64,000 nt of DNA, from positions 10,785-74,784 of the forward strand of contig CAMDZD010000006.1 of assembly GCA_945910815.1 (NCBI GenBank), read 5' to 3'. This DNA comes from an uncultured Clostridia bacterium. Its GTDB lineage: Bacteria; Bacillota; Clostridia; Oscillospirales; Ruminococcaceae. This document shows, in pieces, positions 49,017 to 49,146 of this stretch. The number at the start of each line of letters is the position of its first letter. The stretch's first letter is position 1. The notes beneath the pieces were generated by a model. That model made no database searches. It was given only the letters and a program-made list of their open reading frames with translations, and had not been told where the DNA came from. The translations under genes were made by a program, and so were the position numbers.

Positions 49017-49146
49017 AAGTTCAGGGAATGCAAGCTACCTGAACCGGTTTTCATTATAAAGGTTAAGCGTTCACCCCGACACTTAACCGTAAAATCCCCA
49101 ATAATCCCTATATCATGGCAAGGAGGCTCTGAATAAGAGCCTTTTT
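49017..49146 (+). ncRNA. Candidate ~130-nt small RNA
   Basis: Own -10 (TATAAT 49005-49010), two 7-bp hairpins, a C-rich single-stranded tract, terminator AGGCTCT-GAATA-AGAGCCT-TTTT, and no sizeable ORF. Confidence 0.6.

Follow-up and report, generated by a model that had tools for sequence, protein, structure and literature searches.

A conserved C-rich RNA gene beside a two-component system in Ruminococcus-type gut and rumen bacteria, a candidate trans-acting regulator

Gene order and anatomy of the RNA locus

The window, by which we mean the whole stretch of 64,000 nucleotides that was analysed, carries on its plus strand the genes of an OmpR/PhoB-family response regulator (RR) and a histidine kinase (HK), followed by a dockerin-like gene and a putative small RNA gene, with htrA convergent to the latter (Table 1). 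The kinase has two membrane helices placed around an outside loop of ~140 amino acids, ahead of its HisKA and HATPase domains. The regulator reaches no NCBIfam equivalog cut-off and its nearest PDB matches are generic OmpR-family regulators; an identity with PhoPR was considered and rejected, as another RR paralogue of the window's genome (G000) lies directly beside phoU (G000:C5:36790-38057). The dockerin-like gene gave no Pfam match at E<=0.001, and its C-terminus, when read by eye, shows two calcium-binding repeats, DANLDGIVDVAD and DVHNKGDGITAND. Upstream of the regulator is the gene of a membrane PAS-GGDEF-EAL protein, and the divergent arrangement of these two genes, with a strong conserved TTGACA...TATAAT promoter, was found in 19 of 21 loci; through such a neighbour the two-component system may be connected with c-di-GMP signalling.

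Table 1. Positions of genes, promoter elements and RNA elements at the locus, in window coordinates.
Feature	Position	Strand	Remarks
Membrane PAS-GGDEF-EAL protein, 746 aa	43457-45697	-	divergent from RR gene
RR-HK operon promoter, box TTCACA-TAACT-AACACT with TATAAT	45825..45856	+	box kept before RR orthologues
RR, OmpR/PhoB family, 226 aa	45879..46559	+	Pfam Response_reg and Trans_reg_C; presumed activator of the RNA gene
HK, 488 aa	46546..48012	+	HisKA and HATPase domains
Dockerin-like gene, 279 aa	48101..48940	+	between kinase and RNA genes; outside the conserved unit
Tandem direct-repeat box TTCACT-GACTG-TACACA	48979..48995	+	11-bp period, replaces -35; presumed RR binding site
-10 hexamer TATAAT	49005..49010	+	9 nt after tandem box; CTGACT lies 16 nt upstream of TATAAT
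Putative small RNA, ~135-145 nt	49017..49161	+	5' end placed from the -10, 3' end from the terminator
Hairpin 1, 7 bp	49019..49044	+	GTTCAGG 49019-25 pairs with CCTGAAC 49038-44
Hairpin 2	49061..49088	+	GGTTAAG 49061-67 pairs with CTTAACC 49082-88; loop UUCACCCCGA
Unpaired invariant core AAAUCCCCAAUAAUCCCUAUAUCAUGGCA	49092..49120	+	presumed seed / recognition region
Intrinsic terminator, 14-bp stem, loop GAAUA, then U-tract	49117..49161	+	terminator scan and fold
htrA (Trypsin_2 and PDZ), convergent	49210..50568	-	adjoins the RNA gene in the window's clade only

The putative RNA gene matched covariance model R1 at 49016-49157 (G000:C6:59800-59941) with 105 bits. Its promoter, its two hairpins, the loop UCACCCC and the two copies of AAUCCC (at 49093 and 49103, both inside the tract predicted to be unpaired) all lie where the earlier note on this DNA had placed them. 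Among homologues the -10 is kept as TATAAT or TATACT; hairpin 1 varies in sequence between species with its stem retained, and hairpin 2 displays the conserved loop motif (U)UACCCC / UCACCCC, of which ACCCC is invariant within the genus. The terminator scan gave a stem of 14 pairs at 49117-49149, longer than the 49124-49146 that had been noted, with a T-run to about 49161. It is separate, as had been claimed, from the terminator of htrA, which was found on the minus strand at 49199-49174, and four terminator-like sites were observed in the region where 0.5 were expected. No ORF of at least 30 amino acids lies inside the unit, again as had been read, and among smaller frames neither the ATG of the core nor a 16-codon frame on the minus strand was conserved when read by eye, the core ATG being missing from several genera and no reading frame showing conservation. 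Folding of the plus strand gave -43.5 kcal/mol (z = -4.3, with 0 of 200 shuffles as good), compared with a z of only -1.6 for the minus strand, and these values together with the promoter and the terminator assign the RNA to the plus strand.

Conservation, covariation and distribution of the RNA

With the 181-nt unit as BLAST query, homologues were found in 31 of the 36 genomes of the genus, one in each, and the RNA gene was likewise single in the window's own genome. The core AAAUCCCCAAUAAUCCCUAUAUCAUGG was 100% identical over 27-31 nt across these 31 genomes while flanks and stems diverged, and CCCCAAUAAUCC(C)UAUAUCAU was retained across genera. The exposed C-rich motifs to which the earlier note had drawn attention are the most conserved part of the RNA.

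Covariation was strong. For 29 sequences of the genus, 95.4% of cells in the three-helix structure were paired and 20 pairs showed compensatory changes; none of 500 shuffles scored as high, and pairing fell to 34-51% when the 3' partners were slid by 1-3 columns. An alignment of 104 distinct sequences to R1 gave compensatory changes at 31 of 33 pairs across all three helices, with 95.4% of cells paired versus 43-49% when slid, a margin that is very large even though this alignment was fitted to R1 and is biased toward structure. By helix, these changes fell at all 7 modelled pairs of hairpin 1, at 10 of 11 pairs of hairpin 2 (97% of cells paired) and at 14 of 15 pairs of the terminator stem (helices 4 and 5). 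Conservation and covariation together are decisive against a chance fold and bear out the earlier claim of a self-contained small RNA gene; that this is a real conserved RNA gene we regard as very likely.

Searches with R1 extended the range of the RNA by about 10 genera within the family, at times with two copies in tandem, and beyond the family gave one weak match among 150 genomes from 30 families of the order. An exact-pattern scan with CCCCAATAATCC(N)TATATCAT returned more than 119 species among the matches listed, which include R. flavefaciens, many Ruminococcus species, MAGs labelled 'Oscillospiraceae bacterium', Porcipelethomonas ammoniilytica and Candidatus Ruminococcus primaciens, and the locus is also carried by the cultured Ruminococcus sp. 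XPD3002 (L153); the longer core was also present in 97 metagenome contigs, human-gut assemblies among them. Two contigs of Bacteroidota MAGs labelled Alistipes (L096, JAMPEF010000008.1, and L117, CAYNYB010000003.1) carry a Ruminococcus-type kinase and RNA locus, probably through mis-binning or mislabelling.

Tandem copies of the RNA, ~200 nt apart and each with its own tandem-box promoter, were found in several genera (L130, at 688-708 and 894-914; L040/L053; L099, L100, L111, L132, L156, L161, L177 and L183). The second copies form a paralogue type of their own, in which the core is AAAUCCCUAUAAUCCCUAUAUCAUGG and the hairpin loop carries CUCC or CCCC. Further divergence was seen in genome G207, which is negative with R1 and nevertheless has a diverged C-rich RNA ~60-300 nt past the kinase orthologue (L267, G207:C19). 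This RNA has a promoter of the same kind, with an ATTTCAC-N..-GTCACA box, and further UUCCCCUUUUUGAUUUG, a hairpin loop AACCCCA, a single-stranded AUCCCCCCAAA and a terminator loop CACCCCU, and its presence at the kinase locus indicates that the class of RNA is wider than the sequence family.

The earlier note had recognised no known family, and the Rfam scan agrees: against Rfam 15 the whole window gave nothing at gathering scores, with chance-level matches only at E<=10, and five diverse members gave no family at E<=1. The core sequence was not found in the searchable literature, nor was any description of small RNAs of R. flavefaciens. The RNA family is very likely undescribed, absent from Rfam and from the searchable literature, and very likely conserved in the R. 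flavefaciens group and related genera, in well over 100 species of the Ruminococcus type from gut and rumen.

The two-component neighbour and the shared promoter box

Orthologues of the regulator (79-89% identity) lay upstream of the RNA in 20 of 20 fetched 7.5-kb loci, and by tblastn the RNA gene was found ~100-150 nt downstream of the kinase orthologue, on the same strand, in most species. Of the 119 pattern loci listed, 80 have a same-strand kinase orthologue whose end lies within 700 nt upstream of the RNA. Other genera have about 30 loci at which the RNA gene is on its own, with no kinase linked to it and with its promoter retained. Five genomes with such an unlinked RNA were tested, and all 5 have an RR orthologue (75-80% identity) at another place. 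Of 150 genera of the family, 51 possess the RR orthologue, a range wider than R1 detects. The setting between a dockerin gene and htrA, by which the earlier note had located the RNA, proved to be restricted to the small clade of the window (L001-L003, L136 and L179), the dockerin-like gene being a clade-specific insertion that tblastn found only in L001-L003. Covariation among homologues near htrA had been proposed as a check; the covariation is there, and the homologues adjoin the RR-HK pair in most species, with htrA as neighbour only in that clade. Judged by gene order across species, the conserved partner of the RNA is the RR-HK pair, not htrA or the dockerin gene. SAM riboswitches were observed on the opposite strand downstream of the RNA locus in L011 (2979-3081 (-), 82 bits) and L130 (3034-3137 (-), 81 bits).

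The RNA promoters have no good -35 and carry two half-sites with an 11-bp period, ending 9 nt before the -10. This tandem box, with the consensus (A/T)T(T/A)TCAC(A/G)-N5-(T)(A/T)(A/C)CAC, stands before the RNA gene in nearly all species; of 19 other species examined, 18 have the same box before the RR gene, and unlinked RNA copies in other genera keep it. The box resembles the TT(A/T/C)ACA repeats of the Pho regulon. Rex represses the transcription of RoxS, and inspection by eye of the RNA promoters here showed no complete inverted repeat of the Rex type. When scored with a matrix made from the boxes of other species only, the RR box of the window reached 19.1 bits (rank 7 in the genome) and its RNA box only 13.2 bits, with 42 sites above 14 bits in this AT-rich genome, and a weight-matrix scan for the regulon was dropped as too unspecific there. 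As the same box precedes both genes, the RNA would most likely be a direct, positively controlled output of an autoregulated system, and we consider it probable that the adjacent regulator controls the RNA gene.

A box of similar geometry, ATCATA-ATATT-GTCACA, was found before htrA (50618-50648, minus strand), 8 nt before a TATAAT, and the htrA promoters of six species (L074-L078 and the window) conserve TATCATA-N4-TATCACA 7-8 nt before the -10. Register and geometry are those of the RR/RNA box, to which the htrA box is similar and not identical; with the RR/RNA-box matrix the six htrA boxes scored from -1.7 to 15.2 bits. Given these scores and the 42 genomic sites above 14 bits, co-regulation of htrA with the RNA would be plausible and nothing firmer. 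That the RNA may be induced by stress, as the earlier note had proposed, would rest on the type of kinase and on the similar htrA box. The genome also holds a paralogous RR2-HK2-htrA2 operon (G000:C4:115553-119123), in which RR2 is 44% identical; this arrangement occurs in other species too (L080-L083), and its promoter is a plain sigma-70 promoter with no tandem box.

Mode of action and relation to known small RNAs

The exposed C-rich elements of the RNA are ACCCC in the loop of hairpin 2 and the single-stranded UCCCC and AUCCCU, to which many relatives add a further ACCCC in the terminator loop, giving up to five motifs in some genera. Such exposed and conserved elements point to pairing with G-rich sites on mRNAs, and action by C-rich base pairing is, by a modest preference, the mode we would expect. 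The kinase with its extracytoplasmic loop would act through the OmpR-type regulator on the tandem box to drive transcription of the RNA, the system regulating itself in the same way. The region 49017-49161 (+) would then give a trans-acting regulatory RNA of ~140 nt, whose ACCCC loop, UCCCC and AUCCCU would pair with G-rich stretches of mRNAs, in the typical case at ribosome-binding sites, and thereby alter translation or stability of these mRNAs.

Searches for targets were made by RNAduplex on 2301 start regions of the window's genome, where matches were no better than coding-region or shuffled-seed controls and many of the top ones were promoter -10 boxes, as TGATATAAT resembles the complement of CCUAUAUCAU. 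The pairings with the GH48 and ECF sigma start regions that the earlier note had put forward came to -11.6 and -12.4 kcal/mol, at about rank 400 and 300 of the 2301, and are unremarkable. Start regions with at least 8 contiguous seed pairs in G000 belonged to predicted membrane or secreted proteins in 34 of 57 cases (60%, compared with 33% overall, p = 3e-5, and 32-33% for control seeds). This test was chosen after the list had been inspected, and the identical procedure was therefore repeated on G017, a near-complete genome of the genus (2.05 Mb), where the enrichment was absent (11 of 26, or 42%, versus 39% over the whole genome, p = 0.42; 6 of 11 in the first half, p = 0.2, and 5 of 15 in the second, p = 0.77). 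GGGG in the Shine-Dalgarno zone favoured predicted membrane or secreted proteins in G000 (46% versus 33%, p = 0.0015) and showed no such bias in G017 (33% versus 38%).

Comparison of G000 with G017 over 564 and then 1043 reciprocal best hits gave no start region that pairs strongly in both, the best orthologue pair (-16.6 / -15.5 kcal/mol) being reached in 24% of permutations of the 1043 pairs; the target searches cover two genomes and the regions from -40 to +12, taken without mapped 5' ends. The only long complement of the core genome-wide was its own antisense, and the sites at C33 (a 13-mer) and C2 that are complementary to the core are antisense to, or inside, coding regions. The mRNA of the PAS-GGDEF-EAL protein was tried as a target and rejected: it pairs well in this genome (-21.1 kcal/mol), but in its orthologues the start regions are ordinary GGAGG sites. 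The role that the earlier note had proposed, repression of secreted-protein mRNAs, did not gain from these searches, in which the G000 enrichment failed in G017 and no conserved target appeared, and we keep it as a minority possibility.

Four C-rich regions are conserved in RoxS/RsaE, whose activators are ResDE/SrrAB (PMC4409812). The RNA of the window is like RoxS/RsaE (RF01820) in being a presumed trans RNA of ~100-140 nt with several exposed C-rich regions (hairpin loops, a single-stranded linker and, among many members, the loop of the terminator), and in a dependence on an OmpR-family two-component system that is here suggested by the shared box. It is unlike RoxS/RsaE in its invariant core, AAAUCCCCAAUAAUCCCUAUAUCAU, in being encoded beside its presumed two-component system and in its hosts, which are Oscillospirales anaerobes; the regulator, below every equivalog cut-off, is not assignable to ResD. 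The RsaE covariance model gave 14 bits in the window (E = 8.5, at 49044-49147) against a gathering score of 79, and nothing at E<=1 on the five diverse members.

The promoters of the csRNAs carry a direct repeat-N5-direct repeat 10 nt from the -10, and these RNAs occur in multiple copies and aim a conserved unpaired region at ribosome-binding sites; streptococcal CiaRH controls both htrA and the csRNAs (PMC3091779). The present RNA shares with them a hexamer-N5-hexamer direct repeat that replaces the -35 and stands 9-10 nt upstream of the -10, stem-loops that flank a highly conserved unpaired region, frequent tandem or paralogous copies and a similar box at an htrA gene. The differences are these: the repeat is TTCACA/TACACA where that of CiaR is (N)TTAAG-N5-TTTAAG, the recognition helix of the regulator is RTVDTHIKMLRNSL where that of CiaR is VVEVYVSKVRKKL (on which an identity with CiaR was rejected), and the RNA gave no Rfam match. 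Its unpaired motifs are CCCC and CCCU, not the anti-SD CCUCC of the csRNAs, and CAU, which in the csRNAs is an anti-start element, lies 3' of the C-runs and not 5', so that one start region cannot pair with both.

OmrA/B, MgrR and CpxQ are two-component-dependent small RNAs of enterobacteria that serve as the post-transcriptional arm of their systems, and type I 3'-UTR RNAs are made at the 3' end of an operon from an internal promoter. The likeness of the window's RNA to these is one of logic only; its position resembles type I, and its sequence is unrelated to OmrA/B, MgrR and CpxQ. With its own promoter and terminator, no conserved ORF and an unpaired region between covarying stems, the unit has the general make-up of a trans base-pairing small RNA, and on the comparisons made here it resembles RoxS/RsaE and the csRNAs in logic and is a member of neither.

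Several other readings were weighed against a trans-acting, base-pairing RNA. The RNA could belong to an envelope or secretion stress response, co-induced with htrA and repressing membrane and secreted (including cellulosomal) mRNAs as a Gram-positive counterpart of the sigma-E/Cpx small RNAs. The extracytoplasmic loop of the kinase would suit such a role, as would the exported-protein enrichment in G000 (34 of 57 versus 33%) and the precedent of CiaRH with htrA and the csRNAs (PMC3091779). The htrA box recurs in six species with the geometry of the RR/RNA box, and the paralogous htrA2 system, with its plain sigma-70 promoter, is no better owner of it; these boxes score -1.7 to 15.2 bits, however, and htrA adjoins the RNA only in the window's clade. 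As the enrichment was post hoc and failed in G017, and as the GH48 and ECF sigma pairings are unremarkable, we hold this account to be unlikely, if the least unlikely of those weighed here. The (U)ACCCC loops and the invariant tract could otherwise be protein sites and not antisense seeds, the RNA sequestering or recruiting a protein in the way that CsrB/RsmZ display repeated GGA loops. Many members have three to five copies of the motif in loops or single strands, terminator loop included, the 27-nt invariant tract exceeds what most seeds need, and no conserved mRNA complement was found in the start regions of two genomes or, for the core complement, genome-wide. The negative results on targets keep a protein-binding reading of the ACCCC loops alive, but the comparative one is weak, being drawn from two genomes and start regions only. 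Several C-rich loops are as typical of RoxS, a base-pairing RNA, and no candidate protein is known or linked in the locus; we judge protein binding to be a slim prospect.

A highly diverged orthologue of RoxS/RsaE, in place of a separate family, would account for the several exposed (A/U)CCCC regions, found also in the terminator loop of many members, and for control by a two-component system, and the UUCCCCUUUUUGAUUUG of G207 resembles the RsaE motif CCCCUUUGUUU. Set against this are the low score of the RsaE model and its silence on the five members, an invariant core that has no RsaE counterpart, a regulator that passes no equivalog cut-off, and hosts that are strict anaerobes of a different order, so that orthology appears improbable. 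The unit lies ~100-150 nt past the stop codon of the kinase on the same strand, and could for that reason be a cis element only, a structured 3' end that terminates or stabilises the RR-HK mRNA and has no function in trans. The scan found no terminator between kinase and RNA in L011 and L012, a negative that is weak in that the scan also missed the RNA's own terminator there. An own conserved -10 and tandem box, the about 30 unlinked loci of other genera in which the promoter is kept, and the separate promoter of each tandem duplicate all argue against a cis element, which we consider very improbable. The best explanation overall, held with reasonable though far from full confidence, is a trans-acting RNA driven by the two-component system and acting by C-rich pairing.

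Among the bacteria that degrade fibre in the rumen and the human gut, R. flavefaciens and its relatives hold a key place, and to our knowledge almost nothing is known of post-transcriptional regulation in them. The analysis yields a covariance model for a well-defined RNA family of more than 100 members, whose invariant core has 21-27 nt, together with a conserved candidate regulator and a candidate DNA operator. Taken with RoxS/RsaE and the csRNAs, the RNA of the window suggests that two-component-driven RNAs with multiple C-rich motifs arose repeatedly in Firmicutes. Speculatively, and in our view with low probability, it may serve fibre-degrading Ruminococcaceae as the post-transcriptional arm of a response to envelope or secretion stress that is shared across the family. 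The adjacent two-component system, sensing outside the cytoplasm, would induce it along with htrA, and the C-rich seed would throttle translation of exported proteins, those of the cellulosome included; if true, the sigma-E and Cpx small RNAs would have in it their first Gram-positive counterpart. The locus offers a directly testable way to study a conserved two-component system as well as small-RNA control in the Oscillospirales.
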